The notes beneath the pieces are model-generated. The model worked only from the letters and a program-made list of their open reading frames with translations, did not search any database and had not been told where the DNA came from. A DNA stretch of 64,000 nucleotides, from the NCBI GenBank assembly GCA_937930175.1, contig CALGLP010000022.1, forward strand, positions 161,360-225,359. Direction: 5' to 3'. This document shows positions 49,443 through 55,016 of this stretch, piece after piece; within the stretch, counting starts at the first letter, position 1; every line of letters begins with the position of its first letter. The position numbers were made by a program, and so were the translations under genes. This DNA is from an uncultured bacterium. GTDB lineage: Bacteria; Omnitrophota; Gorgyraeia; Zapsychrales; Aceulaceae.

Positions 49443-49567
49443 GAAATATTTGGTGCTCTTTCTGATAGCATAATTCGTTACATTGACCTACGGACAAGGG
49501 GCGTCAAAGCCCTGTGGCTAAGGGATCAACTCGCAGCAAATATTTGTTGGTGAGTTGTGTTTTTTAG

Positions 49568-49610
49568 AATCCCGGGTTTCCGTTAACAGGCAATCCGGGA
49601 TTTTTATTTT
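49568..49610 (+). terminator. Intrinsic terminator/attenuator ending 18 nt before the hydrogenase-maturation operon start
   Basis: AATCCCGG...CCGGGATT stem with a 19-nt loop followed by TTTTTATTTT. RBS GGAG and ATG 49629 follow. Confidence 0.55.
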
Positions 49611-49628
49611 ATTGATAGGAGAAATATA

Positions 49629-49877
49629 ATGAAAAATCGTTTAGGTTTTATTGGGATTATTATTCATGATCGGGATAAGAGTGCTGAAAAGGTTAATCAT
49701 ATTTTGCATCAGCACGCCAAAATGTTCGTCGGGCGCATGGGTATTCCGTACAAGGAAAAGAATGTGGGTGTTATTACCTTGATTGTCGATGCGGATACGG
49801 ATGACATTGGCGCCCTTACGGGCCGACTTGGCGAGATTGAAGGTGTTTCTGTTAAATCAGCGTTAGTTAAAGAATAG
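49629..49877 (+). CDS. Putative iron-only hydrogenase system regulator (TM1266-like small ACT-type protein)
   Basis: About 80-aa protein at the head of a hydEFG cluster. Sequence and context match the TM1266-like family. Confidence 0.6.
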   Translation: MKNRLGFIGIIIHDRDKSAEKVNHILHQHAKMFVGRMGIPYKEKNVGVITLIVDADTDDIGALTGRLGEIEGVSVKSALVKE

Positions 49878-49888
49878 AAAAGGTACAA

Positions 49889-51286: not shown

Positions 51287-52523
51287 ATCTTTACGTTTAC
51301 ATATCGGCGTCTTTGGACGTACCAATGTTGGAAAATCAAGTTTTTTGAACATGGTATTAGGACAGGATGTGGCGATCGTAAGCGCTCTCCCGGGTACGAC
51401 AACCGATGTGGTGGAAAAGACCATGGAGCTTCTTCCCATTGGGCCCGTTGTGTTTTTAGATACAGCTGGTCTTGATGATACATCGGCGCTTGCTGAGCAA
51501 AGGATCGAAAAAACTACAAAGATATTTAATAGAGCGGATCTCGTGTGCCTTGTTGTTGAGCCTGGGATTTGGGGTAGTTTCGAGGAAGATGTTTTGGCTA
51601 AATCCGTTGCGCAAGGCGTTCCTGTGATAGGCATTATTAATAAAATAGATCTTAGCTGTCCTGATAAAGATTTTATTGATCATGTCACGGCCAAGACAAA
51701 CGGTTGCGTTCTTGTCTCAAGTGTTTCTTGGGATAAAAGAGGTGACTATGTTACTGCGCTAAAAGGGCATTTGATACGCTTGTGTCCAGATGATTTTATC
51801 AATCCTCTTGCCTTGGTAGGTGATTTGGTGTCTTCAGGGAAAGTTCTTGTGCTTGTCATTCCTATCGACCTTGAGGCCCCTAAGGGCCGGCTTATCCTTC
51901 CGCAAGTACAGACAATACGAGATGCGCTAGATGCTGATGCGATGAGTCTTGTTGTTAAGGAAAGAGAATACAGCTATGCGCTTTCGCTTTTGAACGAACC
52001 GCCTGCCTTGGTTGTTTGTGATTCACAGGTTGTCATGAAAATGGTCGCGGATACACCTCGCGCGATAAAGTGCACGACGTTTTCAATCCTTTTTTCGCGC
52101 TATAAAGGAGACCTCGGGGAATGCGTAAAAGGTGCCTGCGCGATTGATAAGCTCATGCCTGGAGATAAGGTTCTGATCGCGGAAAGTTGCAGCCATCATG
52201 CTATCGAAGATGATATCGGAAGGGTTAAGATTCCCCGATGGCTTAGGCAATACCTTGGTCACGATGTCGCAATCGAGGTCAATTCAGGCAAAGATTATCC
52301 GGATAATCTTTCTGAATATAAGCTTGTTATTCATTGCGGCGGATGTATGACAAATAGACGAGAAATGTTGTATAGGATAAATCTTGCGAGAAAACAGGGC
52401 GTCCCAATCACTAACTACGGCGTGTGTATTTCATTTCTCCAAGGTGTTTTGGGAAGAGTGCTCGAACCATTCCCGCAGGCATTGAGCGTTTTTCAAGAGC
52501 AGATGAAACGAAAGAAAAGGTAA
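51270..52523 (+). CDS. hydF: [FeFe]-hydrogenase maturation GTPase HydF
   Basis: G1 GRTNVGKSS, G3 DTAGLDD. C-terminal cluster motifs CSHH and HCGGC. Confidence 0.85.
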   Translation: MEKAPKSLRLHIGVFGRTNVGKSSFLNMVLGQDVAIVSALPGTTTDVVEKTMELLPIGPVVFLDTAGLDDTSALAEQRIEKTTKIFNRADLVCLVVEPGIWGSFEEDVLAKSVAQGVPVIGIINKIDLSCPDKDFIDHVTAKTNGCVLVSSVSWDKRGDYVTALKGHLIRLCPDDFINPLALVGDLVSSGKVLVLVIPIDLEAPKGRLILPQVQTIRDALDADAMSLVVKEREYSYALSLLNEPPALVVCDSQVVMKMVADTPRAIKCTTFSILFSRYKGDLGECVKGACAIDKLMPGDKVLIAESCSHHAIEDDIGRVKIPRWLRQYLGHDVAIEVNSGKDYPDNLSEYKLVIHCGGCMTNRREMLYRINLARKQGVPITNYGVCISFLQGVLGRVLEPFPQALSVFQEQMKRKKR

Positions 52524-52526
52524 CTT

Positions 52527-54017
52527 TTGATGAATAAGATTGGTATTGAAAATTTTAAGAATCCTATTAGGCAAGAAGAGGTCGACAAGTATCTTGATCG
52601 CGGTCGCGATTTTATCCGTGAAGAGGAAATCAACCATTATTTAGAAAACACACGCAGCCCTGATCGTCATGAGTTGGAAGACATTCTGAAAAAAGCGCTG
52701 TCCATTCAAACACTTTCACCGCAAGAAACGGTTGCATTGATGAATGTTAAGGATTCTGATTTGCTTGACAAGATGAAAAAGACCGCCCTAGAAGTCAAAA
52801 AAAAGGTTTATGACAACCGCATCGTAACGTTTGCGCCTCTTTATTTAGGGAATTTTTGCGTGAATAATTGTGCGTATTGTGGATTTAAGACGGATAATAA
52901 GGATGTTACGCGTCGAGTTTTGTCCATGGAGGAGATCAAAAAAGAGGTTGAGGCCCTGGCTGGTGATATTGGGCACAAGCGCCTAGTTGTTGTCTACGGA
53001 GAGCATCCTAGGAATGACATTGATTATATTTTGGAAAGCATTAAGACGATCTATGCTGTTCAGGCAGAAACAAAACATGGAATTGGTAATATCCGTCGGG
53101 TTAACGTCAATGCGCCTCCATTTTCCATTGAGGATTTAGCGCGCTTAAAAGAAGTTGGCTTGGGTACTTATCAGGTTTTTCAAGAAACATATCATCATGA
53201 AACTTATGCCAAGGTTCATCCGGCTAAGACTATTAAAGGAAATTATGCGTGGCGGCTTTATTGTATGCATCGCGCGCTGGAGGCTGGCATTGATGATGTG
53301 GGCATCGGTGTGCTATTTGGACTTTATGATTGGAGATTTGAAGTGCTGGGTCTTTTGTATCATGCGATTGAATTGGAGAAAAAACTTGGCATTGGACCGC
53401 ATACGCTTTCTTTTCCGCGCCTTGAGCCGGCGCATCAGGTGGCACTCGATCAATTTGCGCGTTATCGTGTGAGTGATGATGATTTTAAAAGAATTGTTAT
53501 GATCCTTCGTTTAAGCGTTCCGCACGCGGGAATGATTGTAACCGCTCGCGAGAATGAACAGATGCGACGTGAAGTCCTTGATCTTGGCATCACACAAACT
53601 GACGCTTCAAGTCGTATTGAGATCGGCTCCTATGGCGCTCTTGAGGGAAAGCAACAGAAGGACAAACAGCAATTTATTTTAGGGGACACGCGAAGTCTTG
53701 ATGAGGTGATCCGTGAATTTGCGCAGCGGGGCCTAATCACATCGTTTTGTACCGCTGGATACCGTTGCGGCCGAACAGGCAAGTGTATTATGGATTTGTT
53801 GCGTGATGGCACTGAGGGGAAATTTTGTAAATTGAACGCTATTTTAACTTTCCGCGAATGGTTGGATGATTTTGCTTCAGAGGAAACAAAAAAGATTGCG
53901 GAACCTGTCTTGACGAAGGAAATCGAAGAGGTTCGGCAGAAAATGCCTAAGCTTTACTCAAAGCTTATGGACTATTACGCGCGCATCCAAAAAGGTGAGC
54001 GCGATTTATATCTGTAA
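52527..54017 (+). CDS. hydG: [FeFe]-hydrogenase maturase HydG (radical SAM tyrosine lyase)
   Basis: CVNNCAYC radical-SAM motif. ThiH-like core. C-terminal Cys triad (CTAGYRCGRTGKC). 496 aa. Confidence 0.85.
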   Translation: MMNKIGIENFKNPIRQEEVDKYLDRGRDFIREEEINHYLENTRSPDRHELEDILKKALSIQTLSPQETVALMNVKDSDLLDKMKKTALEVKKKVYDNRIVTFAPLYLGNFCVNNCAYCGFKTDNKDVTRRVLSMEEIKKEVEALAGDIGHKRLVVVYGEHPRNDIDYILESIKTIYAVQAETKHGIGNIRRVNVNAPPFSIEDLARLKEVGLGTYQVFQETYHHETYAKVHPAKTIKGNYAWRLYCMHRALEAGIDDVGIGVLFGLYDWRFEVLGLLYHAIELEKKLGIGPHTLSFPRLEPAHQVALDQFARYRVSDDDFKRIVMILRLSVPHAGMIVTARENEQMRREVLDLGITQTDASSRIEIGSYGALEGKQQKDKQQFILGDTRSLDEVIREFAQRGLITSFCTAGYRCGRTGKCIMDLLRDGTEGKFCKLNAILTFREWLDDFASEETKKIAEPVLTKEIEEVRQKMPKLYSKLMDYYARIQKGERDLYL

Positions 54018-54023
54018 CATGTC

Positions 54024-55016
54024 ATGTATAAGAATCAAATACTAGAACATCTTCGATCGTCGGATCCTTCGCGGCTTTTCGCAGAAGCGGACCAGGTCCG
54101 CACGCACTATTGCGGCGAGGAAGTTCATTTGCGTGGCATCATTGAATTTTCTAATTATTGCCATCAAGATTGTCTTTATTGTGGATTGCGTCGCAGCAAT
54201 GTTACAGTCACTCGCTATCGCATGACTTCAAAGGAGATCATTGCCTGTGCGCAAAAGGCGCTTGCGCTTGCCATTCCTACTGTTGTCCTGCAATCAGGGG
54301 AGGACCTGTTTTACAAGATCGAAGATCTGTGTTTTATTGTTCAGGAGATCAAGAAATTAAATATCGCGATCACGCTATCGATCGGAGAACGTTCTCTTGA
54401 TGACTATCGAAGATTAAGGGAGGCGGGGGCTGATCGATACCTTTTGCGTCTTGAAACTTCTGACGAGAAGCTCTATGCAAAATTAAGACCTGGGCATTCT
54501 TTTTTCGAGCGTTTAAAATGTCTTCAATGGCTTAAAGAATTAGGGTATCAGGTAGGTTCTGGTATCATGGTTGGTTTGCCTGAGCAATCTTTAGAGAGCA
54601 TCGCCGACGACATCTTGCTTTTTCAATCTTTGGATCTGGATATGATCGGCATTGGGCCTTTTTTGCCTCATCCGAATACTCCTTTGGCAGGGAACAAAAG
54701 CATTGGGATCGACATGGTTTTGAAGGTTCTTGCCATAACACGCATTGTGACAAGAAATACCCATATTCCCGCGACAACTGCTGTTGGCACCATTGATACC
54801 CAAGGCCGACAAAAGGCCCTGACTTGCGGTGCTAATGTGATCATGCCTAATATAACGCCCATGCAGTATCGCAAATTCTATGAAATTTATCCTGATAAAA
54901 TATGCTTGTCAGAGGACCCAGCAACATGTAGGGGCTGTGTGGAAAAAATGATTTTGAAAGCTAACCGAAGAGTTGGCACTGGCCCTGGCCACACTTTAAA
55001 AGAGGAAAAGAAATGA
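54024..55016 (+). CDS. hydE: [FeFe]-hydrogenase maturase HydE (radical SAM, BioB-like)
   Basis: CHQDCLYCGLR radical-SAM motif. 330 aa. Confidence 0.85.
   Translation: MYKNQILEHLRSSDPSRLFAEADQVRTHYCGEEVHLRGIIEFSNYCHQDCLYCGLRRSNVTVTRYRMTSKEIIACAQKALALAIPTVVLQSGEDLFYKIEDLCFIVQEIKKLNIAITLSIGERSLDDYRRLREAGADRYLLRLETSDEKLYAKLRPGHSFFERLKCLQWLKELGYQVGSGIMVGLPEQSLESIADDILLFQSLDLDMIGIGPFLPHPNTPLAGNKSIGIDMVLKVLAITRIVTRNTHIPATTAVGTIDTQGRQKALTCGANVIMPNITPMQYRKFYEIYPDKICLSEDPATCRGCVEKMILKANRRVGTGPGHTLKEEKK

Follow-up and report, generated by a model that had tools for sequence, protein, structure and literature searches.

A conserved hairpin ahead of the hydrogenase maturation genes looks like the sensor of an OFF-type transcription attenuator

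Introduction

In the Bacillus pyr operon, attenuation depends on PyrR, whose gene is the first after the leader; the hairpin that PyrR binds is an anti-antiterminator, so that binding leads to termination, and additional sites lie between genes further downstream. The hyd maturation cluster described here, in which a TM1266-like gene is the first after the leader, shares this arrangement, its hairpin would act in the same direction if the binding that we propose occurs, and extra copies of its RNA between downstream genes, in Syntrophomonadaceae-type loci, are reminiscent of the multiple PyrR sites in the pyr operon. The RNA is, however, unlike the PyrR site in sequence and shape, its leaders have no match in Rfam, and PyrR has a PRTase fold, whereas the fold of the TM1266-like protein is ACT/NikR-C-like.

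The CAT domain of BglG, SacY and LicT binds, as a protein dimer, to the quasi-symmetric RAT hairpin, which has two small internal loops and lies beside a terminator. The geometry of a dimer on a quasi-symmetric hairpin is also proposed here. RAT, however, overlaps the 5' arm of the terminator and its binding leads to read-through, whereas the new hairpin lies 7-25 nt upstream of the terminator and is complementary to its arm, so that binding should give termination; no CAT/PRD protein is encoded near the leader studied here. TRAP (trp) and HutP (hut) are, as envisaged for the TM1266-like protein, small oligomeric ligand-activated proteins that act on repeated leader motifs and choose between terminator and antiterminator; their folds are unrelated to that of TM1266-like, and they bind single-stranded triplet repeats, in contrast to the base-paired, covarying hairpin of the new element.

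Guanidine-II, NAD+-I and glycine riboswitches resemble the new RNA in their short sensors, sometimes in tandem, with conserved nucleotides mostly in loops, and in the use of an intrinsic terminator as expression platform; they differ in that the new RNA is without an Rfam match and has symmetric purine loops rather than a defined pocket. In Clostridia, the DNA-binding repressor Rex acts on the same hydrogenase and hydG/TM1266 genes, and PMC8457756 lists Rex sites at hydG of C. thermocellum and at its neighbour, a 'putative iron-only hydrogenase system regulator'. No Rex box was detected near the leader in the window (the whole 64-kb stretch under study, from the first letter of which all coordinates count), and the new element, being strand-specific, containing G.U pairs and coupled to a terminator, works as an RNA.

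The maturation cluster and its leader

The genes run, as the earlier note had read them, in the order TM1266-like, aspartase-like, hydF, hydG and hydE, all on the + strand of the ORF list, and profile searches gave scores above the NCBIfam/Pfam cut-offs for all five:

49098..49442, + strand: CMD/AhpD-like ORF, upstream neighbour of the leader (profile match)
49443..49628, + strand: leader, the 186-nt intergenic spacer between the CMD-like and TM1266-like genes
49629..49877, + strand: TM1266-like gene, first after the leader (82 aa; TIGR03959, 113 bits against a cut-off of 60.8; PF21699)
49889..51286, + strand: aspartate ammonia-lyase-like gene (Lyase_1; NF008909, 532 bits against a cut-off of 510)
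51270..52523, + strand: hydF (TIGR03918, 527 bits)
52527..54017, + strand: hydG (TIGR03955, 476 bits; start codon uncertain, TTG at 52527 in the ORF list)
54024..55016, + strand: hydE (TIGR03956, 362 bits)

The product of the second gene exceeds the NF008909 subfamily cut-off but misses that of the aspA equivalog, which makes 'aspartase-like' an apt name; this gene is absent from the closest relative, L161. Upstream, a group A6 [FeFe] hydrogenase gene and a NuoF/GltD-like fusion gene precede the CMD/AhpD-like ORF.

The leader was said to end in a stem-loop and T-tract, separated from the first ATG by 18 nt with a ribosome-binding site, and both are found in the sequence. Folding of 49443-49628, which the note had proposed, gave -59.8 kcal/mol for the whole spacer (z = -3.78), with none of 200 shuffles equally good. 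The elements recognized in the leader are the following:

49469..49474, + strand: CATAAT, the one -10-like hexamer ahead of the sensor and perhaps a weak promoter of this leader, without a -35 (sigma70 scoring)
49483..49529, + strand: covariance-model match, the sensor hairpin with flanks of 4-5 nt (model R2, 24.5 bits, E = 2.4e-4)
49487..49524, + strand: putative sensor hairpin, 38 nt (RNAfold; helices covarying across the family)
49516..49527, + strand: sensor 3' half (GGCUAAGGGAUC), predicted alternative partner of the terminator 5' arm at 49567-49578 (duplex -9.6 kcal/mol, z = -1.6 against shuffles)
49527..49566, + strand: middle hairpin (stem 49527-49557, -13.5 kcal/mol) followed by UGUUUUUUA, the first and weaker terminator-like structure (folding)
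49567..49578, + strand: 5' arm of the main terminator (GAAUCCCGGGUU), which the alternative pairings engage (pairing and fold predictions)
49568..49610, + strand: main intrinsic terminator, stem-loop 49568-49602 and T-tract 49601-49610 (-19.8 kcal/mol folded alone)
49617..49621, + strand: ribosome-binding site AGGAG, 7 nt ahead of the ATG at 49629

In the main terminator, AAUCCCGG (49568-49575) pairs with CCGGGAUU (49595-49602), with further inner pairs, and the T-tract is TTTTTATTTT (49601-49610); the 18 nt that follow, to the ATG of the TM1266-like gene, are 49611-49628. A simple terminator scanner did not call this terminator, because of one internal mismatch in the hairpin. The middle hairpin, whose stem is followed by UGUUUUUU, is a second terminator-like structure just upstream of the main terminator; absent from the earlier note, it aligns with the sole terminator of the relatives L163-L165, and its U-tract is predicted to be able to pair with the sensor 3' strand. 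The leader (49443-49628) holds no ATG and therefore no ATG-initiated leader peptide.

An RNA family ahead of TM1266-like genes

The structured hairpin found before the hyd maturation genes is an RNA family uncatalogued in Rfam 15 and in the literature searched, neither of which held anything resembling it; none of Rfam's 4227 families matched when these leaders were scanned, in line with the undescribed element that had been suggested. Most of 160 unrelated loci have a hairpin with a T-tract 5-50 nt ahead of the TM1266-like start. The family hairpin lies upstream of the TM1266-like gene in 119 loci out of 157; these represent over 10 phylum-level groups, and all 13 Omnitrophota loci are among them. 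Model R1 gave sense-strand matches 46-193 nt upstream of the TM1266-like start in 69 loci, and model R2 gave more. Found together ahead of these genes in more than 10 phyla but in none of the RNA catalogues searched, hairpin and terminator probably form a new genetic switch for hydrogenase activation.

The sensor of the family is a hairpin of 38-45 nt with three short helices, P1, P1a and P2, separated by small purine-purine internal loops. It is a near-perfect dyad, each strand reading roughly 5'-CU-GA-N(2-4)-AA-GG-3' (CUGA-N4-AAGG), in which both hairpin ends are closed by an invariant U.G wobble and a C-G pair, and the two conserved purine internal loops are symmetric and range from 2x2 to 3x4. 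The Bacillota form has just two 2x2 loops (GA opposite AA) around a 4-bp helix, and neither a multi-helix junction nor a pseudoknot. The helices covary: in two independent sets, 93.8% of cells were paired, against 78-80% when shuffled, and the covariation score was 0.37/0.43 against 0.15/0.16, with none of 500 shuffles as high and slid controls at or below 0.13. A third comparison, of 44 sequences chosen by a sequence-only regex and aligned with plain MAFFT, gave 0.495 against 0.19, with CG/UA/GC/AU exchanges at all four P1a pairs, and P1a partners scored 3.07 against 2.43 +/- 0.06 when permuted between loci.

Copies also occur in other arrangements. Tandem copies share one terminator in eight loci (L152, L075, L167, L170, L172, L013, L038 and L113), and a second RNA with its terminator lies between TM1266-like and hydG in six (L055, L023, L042, L145, L121 and L122). 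In L064, an extra copy is found at the 3' end of hydAB, away from any maturation gene, where an extended P1 and a U-tract end the hydAB unit.

The hairpin in the window was the top match of model R2, which had been built without the window sequence, across the 64 kb with filters off; its model R1 score was 11 bits. P1 is formed by 49487-49489 with 49522-49524, P1a by 49492-49493 with 49518-49519, and P2 by 49498-49502 with 49509-49513 around the loop 49503-49508, with purine-rich internal loops between them, and every one of the ten modelled pairs is canonical or G.U. RNAfold finds the hairpin unaided (-13.8 kcal/mol alone), and does so again in nascent transcripts that stop at 49530, 49557 and 49566.

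Attenuator geometry

An intrinsic terminator follows the hairpin in 94 of 102 family members, and the sensor 3' half is complementary to the terminator 5' arm across 77 loci (mean z -0.84 to -1.10, p ~1e-7 to 2e-9). Because it covaries, is linked to a terminator and has a 3' half complementary to the terminator 5' arm, the hairpin looks like the sensor, or anti-antiterminator, of an OFF-type transcription attenuator; the OFF direction is what we infer from this arrangement. Held shut, the hairpin would let the terminator form and transcription would end before the TM1266-like, aspartase-like, hydF, hydG and hydE genes; free, its 3' half could invade the terminator 5' arm and RNA polymerase would read through.

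In the window the predicted switching geometry is less clean than in the relatives, because there are two tandem terminators. The minimum-energy fold of the nascent RNA ending at 49581 pairs 49574-49578 with 49485-49489, and the sensor-open and sensor-closed leaders are near-isoenergetic (-50.4 and -49.3 kcal/mol), the main terminator being predicted in both states. A forced simple antiterminator reaches -35.2 kcal/mol, against -50.4 for the fold with the terminator; this weakness, together with the mismatched P1a of the closest relatives, L001 and L161, counts against our preferred explanation.

The same features would suit a leader without regulation, in which two constitutive terminators end the hydrogenase-CMD unit, the RNA-family match (24.5 bits, in the lower half of family scores) is a decaying remnant, and the maturation genes are served by residual read-through or by a weak promoter-like match inside the terminator. 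Such a match exists (TTAACA-16-TATTTT, 9/12, 49583-49610), and the 90 nt upstream of the sensor hold no good sigma70 promoter, with a top score of merely 7/12. However, matches of this quality occur in the region at chance frequency (37 found, 30.5 expected), a start about 7 nt past 49610 would sit within the ribosome-binding site, and the intact pairs, the unaided recovery of the hairpin and its retention throughout the Omnitrophota loci make this reading very improbable. Transcripts that cover the leader in the window may begin at a promoter within 49443-49482 or enter from the hydrogenase genes. At the position equivalent to CATAAT, Bacillota relatives have clear TTGACx-17-TATAAT promoters (clear in L167 and L172), and sigma70-like promoters lie directly upstream of the element in 30% of loci, against 5.5% of control windows.

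The family may also act otherwise, through another trans-acting protein, as a short stable trans RNA released as a promoter-hairpin-terminator transcript, or as an element for processing or stability that fixes the amount of hydrogenase structural mRNA relative to maturase mRNA. The element sits precisely between hydA (or hydA-CMD) and the maturation genes in Omnitrophota and in several further groups, the L064 copy ends the hydAB unit, and promoter, hairpin and terminator in Bacillota would yield a transcript of 100-130 nt. We consider this unlikely: the systematic complementarity to the terminator arm speaks for a switch in cis, the RNA is accompanied by no further conserved gene for a candidate protein, and uncoupling from hydA is excluded as a general role, since the Bacillota element heads a dedicated transcript.

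Conditional read-through, by an attenuator or an undescribed riboswitch, had been argued in the earlier note from the missing promoter space alone. The covarying element that precedes the terminator, in the window as in roughly three-quarters of TM1266-like loci, and its complementarity to the terminator support this reading, much more strongly than the lack of promoter space does, as far as comparison of sequences can.

The candidate effector

As to what holds the hairpin shut, our tentative first choice, put forward as a hypothesis only, is the TM1266-like protein encoded directly downstream, the leader then being an OFF-type attenuator of a new RNA family. This small, oligomeric, ACT/NikR-C-like protein, which has no DNA-binding domain, would recognize and bind the dyad-symmetric hairpin, perhaps in a form that carries a small ligand, and would thus feed back on its own synthesis and on that of the H-cluster maturases, much as PyrR does on the pyr leader and TRAP on the trp leader.

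Possible too, and ranked close behind, is a true riboswitch aptamer in the same attenuator, with a small molecule or metal ion in the purine-rich loops, one site per dyad half or cooperatively across tandem copies, whose binding would lock the hairpin and cause termination; TM1266-like would then simply be the first regulated gene, whose product might be an ACT protein with the same ligand. G.U wobbles adjoining tandem purine mismatches are classical metal-ion sites in RNA, and the invariant wobbles of the hairpin are of this type. A conserved, covarying RNA with an intrinsic-terminator expression platform, downstream genes all in one pathway and tandem copies on one terminator, as in glycine riboswitches, would fit an aptamer, and the wide phyletic spread, more typical of metabolite riboswitches, counts against a protein effector. 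In the RNA-less loci (~24%: Atribacterota, Thermotogota, Lentisphaerota and others), TM1266-like keeps every conserved residue, including the basic R4, R15, R36, K/R42, 44, 66 and 76; its conserved function is thus not obviously dependent on a nearby RNA copy, as an aptamer would also allow. Against an aptamer, the two 2x2 loops of the Bacillota form leave little room for a metabolite pocket, a near-perfect dyad is unusual among known aptamers, and no obvious metabolite of H-cluster assembly fits easily with OFF logic, as substrates like Tyr, SAM, GTP or Fe would be expected to switch expression on. An aptamer also leaves unexplained the hydAB-end copy in L064, which would suit a small regulon under a trans-acting factor, and the fixed adjacency of RNA and TM1266-like.

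For the TM1266-like protein as effector, this adjacency is an argument: TM1266-like is nearly always the first gene after the RNA, whereas asp, hydE, hydF and hydG come in no fixed order. Because most loci were gathered through TM1266-like itself, the co-occurrence is biased; in the unbiased, HydG-anchored sample, which has only seven loci, the RNA was present in all six with TM1266-like and absent from the single locus without it. The dyad symmetry of the hairpin would suit an oligomer of identical subunits. The 2NZC structure has four chains, the nearest folds of TM1266-like include the tetrameric NikR C-domain, the RNA-contacting ACT domain of RelA and bS6, and the family has a median pI of 9.0.

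The hydrogenase maturation cluster and its leader

The features under study all lie on the forward strand, with the leader between the CMD/AhpD-like gene and the TM1266-like gene.

Features of the window around the leader
44123-47260, +, NuoF/GltD-like fusion gene
47260-49038, +, gene for a group A6 NADH-dependent [FeFe] hydrogenase
49098-49442, +, CMD/AhpD-like gene (114 aa)
49443-49628, +, 186-nt spacer (the leader) between the CMD/AhpD-like and TM1266-like genes
49629-49877, +, TM1266-like gene
49889-51286, +, aspartase-like gene
after the aspartase-like gene, +, hydF, hydG and hydE, in that order

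The order TM1266-like, aspartase-like, hydF, hydG, hydE, read from the sequence alone in the earlier note, was correct, and all five genes scored above the curated family cut-offs in HMM searches, among them hydE (TIGR03956, 362 bits vs a cut-off of 254.6), hydF (TIGR03918, 527 vs 325.6 bits) and hydG (TIGR03955, 476 vs 312 bits). The lyase matches the aspartate ammonia-lyase subfamily model only, below the aspA equivalog level. The first product belongs to the TM1266 family: it exceeds the curated cut-off of TIGR03959/PF21699 and has the ACT-like beta-alpha-beta-beta-alpha-beta fold. The presence of the lyase gene in the cluster varies: in the closest relative, locus L161 (TM1266-like protein 90% identical), the aspartase-like gene is absent and hydF lies directly 3' of the TM1266-like gene (L161:2501-4021, corresponding to 49629-52523 of the window). 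L161 does keep the gene at 44123-47260, which adjoins the group A6 hydrogenase gene. Its 1045-aa product, an unusual electron-input module, fuses a NuoF-like flavoprotein (Complex1_51K, NADH_4Fe-4S) with a GltD/NfnB-like pyridine-nucleotide oxidoreductase. Close relatives vary in the small gene that separates hydA from the leader; it is CMD/AhpD-like in the window and in L161, and its place is taken by a stand-alone response-regulator receiver domain in loci L163-L165 (positions 1991-2375).

The spacer ends, as had been described, in a stem-loop and a T-tract: a hairpin at 49568-49602 (-19.8 kcal/mol) runs into TTTTTATTTT (49601-49610), and the 18 nt from there to the ATG carry AGGAG. When folded, the spacer proved to be structured far beyond shuffled sequences (z = -3.78). 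Two hairpins that had been overlooked precede the main terminator (49568-49610): an AU-richer one with a U6 tract at 49527-49566, and a smaller one at 49487-49524, hereafter the sensor hairpin. An intrinsic terminator is thus placed between sensor and start codon. A simple terminator scanner missed it because of an internal mismatch, and RNAfold was used for terminators.

Other explanations of the spacer were rejected: a leader peptide, since the spacer contains no ATG, and a Rex operator, since no site is found near the leader. A Rex-box-like palindrome with one mismatch (TTATGAAAATTTTCACAA) occurs at 55389-55406, just within the start of the thioredoxin gene 3' of hydE; at one-mismatch stringency, such matches are to be expected by chance. 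A sigma70-like match at 49583-49610 (TTAACA-16-TATTTT, 9/12), inside the terminator loop and T-tract, is also probably due to chance; a start about 7 nt past its second hexamer would fall inside the ribosome-binding site (49617-49621).

A conserved hairpin upstream of TM1266-like genes

We collected 160 loci in which a relative of the TM1266-like protein is encoded, 80 of them from species-representative genomes and 80 from metagenomes. In most of them a GC hairpin with a T-tract lies directly ahead of the ribosome-binding site and, farther upstream, two similar boxes are found (for example, CCUGCGGUAAGG ... CUGAAGCCAAGGG). These were modelled as a hairpin formed by P1 (CCU with AGG), P1a (2-4 bp) and P2 (GG... 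with ...CU), the last closing a variable loop. A first covariance model, built from 19 seeds and run over both strands of about 1.1 Mb, gave 69 sense-strand matches 46-193 nt upstream of a TM1266-like gene and almost none elsewhere; long 'matches' about 2.3 kb upstream in three loci (L010, L017 and L159), at about the position of hydA there, were disregarded. For a second model, 57 hits were used and the window was left out. Its top match in the 64-kb window, with filters off, was 49483-49529 (24.5 bits, E = 2.4e-4), where each of the ten modelled pairs is either canonical or G.U; RNAfold independently predicted the same hairpin in nascent transcripts ending at 49530, 49557 and 49566. A second match, at 25051-25078 (18.5 bits), has no P2, lies inside a 1232-aa ORF and was put down to chance. 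The motif pattern had no matches in viral contigs.

The earlier note had proposed an attenuator or an undescribed riboswitch. All 4227 models of Rfam 15, run on both strands of window positions 40000-60000 at a permissive E-value, gave no match in the leader, nor did permissive scans of the leaders of 10 Omnitrophota-type and 8 Bacillota loci. The scans recovered, as a positive control, the Moco (molybdenum/tungsten cofactor) riboswitch of a Desulfotomaculum copahuensis locus (L060:6131-6247, 69.8 bits), which lies about 2 kb 3' of the TM1266-like gene.

In the genome and metagenome hit sets, analyzed separately, standard pairs occupy 93.8% of the pair cells vs 78-80% after shuffling, and the covariation scores are 0.43 and 0.37 vs 0.16 and 0.15, with none of 500 shuffles as high; controls with slid partners did not exceed 0.13. 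Because these alignments had been fitted to the model, the test was repeated on a model-free alignment of 44 sequences, retrieved with a sequence-only regular expression and aligned by MAFFT, and the score was 0.495 vs 0.19. In this alignment CG, UA, GC and AU are all frequent at four P1a positions. Examples of P1a pairs are CCGC/GCGG, UAAU/AUUA, UUAC/GUAA, UUGC/GCAA, CUUA/UAAG and GAAC/GUUU; the mean complementary run, 3.07, dropped to 2.43 +/- 0.06 when P1a partners were permuted between loci. The U.G wobble and the C-G pair closing P1/P2 are almost invariant. In its Bacillota form the hairpin is a near-perfect dyad, reading CU-GA-NNNN-AA-GG on both strands, with a 4-bp helix flanked by two 2x2 purine loops (GA opposite AA).

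The two halves of the element are direct repeats with complementary cores. It needs its G.U pairs, is specific to one strand and is coupled to a terminator; a palindromic DNA operator is therefore rejected, and the element acts as RNA. In the nearest relatives of the window (L001:876-921 and L161:2328-2373) both P1a pairs are mismatched (AG opposite AC) and both half-sites read GACAAGGG, the half-site sequence being kept where pairing is lost.

Proposed control of termination across the family and in the window

A strong intrinsic terminator follows the hairpin in 94 of 102 instances, typically 7-25 nt past it and 15-50 nt ahead of the start codon. Complementarity between the 3' half of the hairpin and the 5' arm of the terminator exceeds that of shuffles (n = 77; mean z = -0.84 for the hairpin alone, p ~1e-7, and -1.10 with the spacer included, p ~2e-9), as in GAAGCUAAGGGA against UCCCAGCUUC (locus L044) or CAAGGAA against UUCCUUG (locus L153). 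At the level of the family, therefore, a terminator-excluding pairing overlaps the sensor, and the hairpin and the antiterminator are mutually exclusive. Stabilization of the hairpin would allow the terminator to form, from which we infer the direction of switching, that of an OFF switch. Recognisable sigma70 promoters immediately precede the hairpin in 30% of the loci vs 5.5% of control windows. In cultured Bacillota the element stands at the head of a transcript of its own, for example in Desulfofundulus salinus (L167, TTGTCA-17-TATAAT) and Desulfofalx alkaliphila (L172, TTGACT-17-TATAAT).

In the window the hairpin is intact and the expression platform is more complex than in its relatives. 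The middle hairpin and its U6 tract align with the sole terminator of L163-L165 (73-77% protein identity), and by this sequence comparison the second, stronger terminator would be a gain in the window and its closest relatives, L001 and L161. Two near-isoenergetic states were predicted for the leader, one with the sensor closed (-49.3 kcal/mol) and one with its base opened (-50.4 kcal/mol), in which CUAAGGGAU pairs with GUGUUUUUUAG. In nascent RNA extending to 49581 the open form, where 49485-49489 also pairs with 49574-49578 within the 5' arm of the main terminator, reaches -36.4 kcal/mol vs about -28.5 kcal/mol for the closed form. The main terminator nevertheless forms in both full-length low-energy folds. 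In the window alone, the simple antiterminator (49516-49527 with 49567-49578) gives -9.6 kcal/mol (z = -1.6), but a fold in which the antiterminator is forced comes out 15 kcal/mol less stable than the one with the terminator. That there is no regulation in this window seems very improbable to us. Ahead of the window's sensor there is no good promoter, only the hexamer CATAAT (49469-49474); the leader may also be reached by transcripts from the hydrogenase genes.

Distribution and gene context of the element

Presence was scored from hits of the model together with those of a descriptor able to recognise the Bacillota variants as well. The element was present in 119 of 157 evaluable TM1266-like loci, including those of Omnitrophota (13/13), Bacillota (27/34) and Bacteroidota (3/3), and also in Verrucomicrobiota, Fibrobacterota, Auribacterota, Desulfobacterota, Hydrogenedentota, WOR-3 and UBP13; it was not found in Atribacterota (0/3), Lentisphaerota (0/2) or the single loci of Thermotogota and Spirochaetota. 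NuoF-like, HydA, RNA and TM1266-like usually come in this order, and asp, hydE, hydF and hydG follow in varying succession. In nearly all loci the RNA is followed first by TM1266-like; on a Moorellaceae contig the RNA precedes hydG and the TM1266-like gene lies farther down. Six Syntrophomonadaceae-type loci carry, besides the upstream element, a second RNA with a terminator between the TM1266-like gene and hydG.

Second RNA and terminator within the operon, by locus
L055:4260-4296
L023:4333-4372
L042:3025-3061
L145:553-589
L121 and L122:4284-4322

In eight further leaders (L152, L075, L013, L038, L113, L167, L170 and L172) tandem hairpins, 7-20 nt apart, precede a single terminator, an arrangement that points to cooperative sensing or to four half-sites bound by a tetramer. 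On a Desulfonauticus contig an extra copy (L064:1662-1703, minus) lies directly after hydAB, the genes for the large and small [FeFe] hydrogenase subunits, on the strand opposite to the main element and about 380 nt ahead of a nitroreductase-family ORF; with its extended P1 and a U-tract immediately 3', it looks like a sensor doubling as the hydAB terminator.

What may hold the hairpin shut

Our tentative first choice for the factor that holds the hairpin shut is the TM1266-like protein; a riboswitch for a small molecule or ion is a real possibility, and the two models are close to each other. As in attenuation of the PyrR/TRAP type, the gene for the candidate regulator is part of the operon and accompanies the RNA, in a sample that is small and otherwise biased: among seven HydG-anchored loci the RNA was found in 6/6 with TM1266-like as first gene and in 0/1 without it (a Syntrophorhabdus locus, asp-hydF-hydG), but most loci were collected via TM1266-like, a bias that counts against the protein. 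The succession of RNA and TM1266-like gene is fixed where the other genes shuffle, sites are repeated inside operons, again as with PyrR, and a copy stands at the 3' end of hydAB. Dyad symmetry would fit an oligomer of identical subunits; the structure of the family, 2NZC, has four chains, and its nearest fold is the tetrameric NikR C-domain. The family bears the name 'regulator' yet has no DNA-binding domain. It is mildly basic (median pI 9.0) and its ACT/ferredoxin-like fold is common to the RelA ACT domain and bS6; pI and fold are indirect hints that it might bind the leader RNA. However, an ACT fold usually binds small molecules, and the proteins from RNA-less loci keep all conserved residues, with no differential conservation between loci with and without the RNA beyond terminal lysines. 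That another trans factor acts here, or that the RNA has another role, is unlikely. A search of PDB sequences with the TM1266-like protein returned 2NZC only, which carries no functional annotation.

For a riboswitch speaks that a covarying, structured element of the kind expected of an aptamer stands ahead of the genes of one pathway, hyd maturation genes only, and that so wide a phyletic spread is more typical of riboswitches. The Bacillota form, however, has very small loops, which favours the protein, and at 2x2 they are a ground for caution about a ligand-binding RNA.

Speculatively, and rather doubtfully as a whole, the TM1266-like proteins, with their ACT/NikR-C-like fold, could be attenuation proteins of a new family that bind RNA and are gated by a ligand. 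An oligomer of identical subunits would clamp the dyad hairpin (CUGA-N4-AAGG on both strands), causing termination ahead of the TM1266-like gene itself and the genes for the H-cluster maturases; in some lineages it would act at the 3' end of the hydrogenase structural genes as well. Through its ligand the protein would sense the state of H-cluster assembly, and the RNA-protein module would form a widespread, unrecognised control layer of [FeFe]-hydrogenase biogenesis.

Relation to known elements and significance

The element is outside the ANTAR, K-turn, RAT and PyrR/TRAP-type families and the riboswitch families of Rfam 15. ANTAR targets consist of two tandem hairpins with A1 and G4 in a hexaloop, the second overlapping a terminator, whereas inspection shows a single hairpin here, with a terminal loop of 3 to about 20 nt and variable sequence; the window cluster encodes no ANTAR protein. 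A kink-turn has a three-nucleotide bulge and tandem sheared G.A/A.G pairs; in the alignments inspected, none of the loops, which range from 2x2 (GA opposite AA) to 3x4, has three nucleotides bulged out on a single strand. The quasi-symmetric geometry recalls the LicT-type, dimer-bound RAT hairpin, but the logic is opposite and, by inspection, RAT does not fit. In function the element is similar to attenuators of the PyrR/TRAP type or to a small OFF riboswitch. In the openly accessible literature we found no RNA element or attenuation described at hydE/F/G or TM1266 genes; in the motif surveys (Weinberg, 2010; 2017), the 26- and 50-genome surveys and a review of Clostridioides difficile riboswitches, mentions of hydrogenases held nothing relevant. 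We regard the hairpin as a new cis-regulatory RNA family on a familiar terminator/antiterminator principle, with an effector that is possibly unprecedented.

Ever since 2NZC was released in 2006, the TM1266 family has remained an orphan under the label 'putative regulator'. Maturation of [FeFe]-hydrogenase by HydE, HydF and HydG has been studied intensively; to our knowledge, its regulation is almost unknown. A leader RNA with a terminator now stands ahead of maturation operons in Omnitrophota, Bacillota, Bacteroidota, Verrucomicrobiota, Fibrobacterota, Desulfobacterota and others. A 45-nt RNA and an 82-aa protein make a minimal system for a concrete and cheap experiment, and either outcome, a riboswitch class or a family of RNA-binding attenuation proteins, would be new and would explain how maturase levels are set relative to hydrogenase; the element would also offer compact control for engineering hydrogen metabolism in anaerobes. 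Cultured carriers include acetogens and syntrophs, among them N. thermoacetica and P. thermopropionicum. On the contig of L170, whose HydG cluster is labelled Syntrophothermus lipocalidus, an uncharacterised 62-aa ORF (L170:6540-6728) separates the TM1266-like gene from its neighbour, which encodes a radical SAM protein and is hydE by position.
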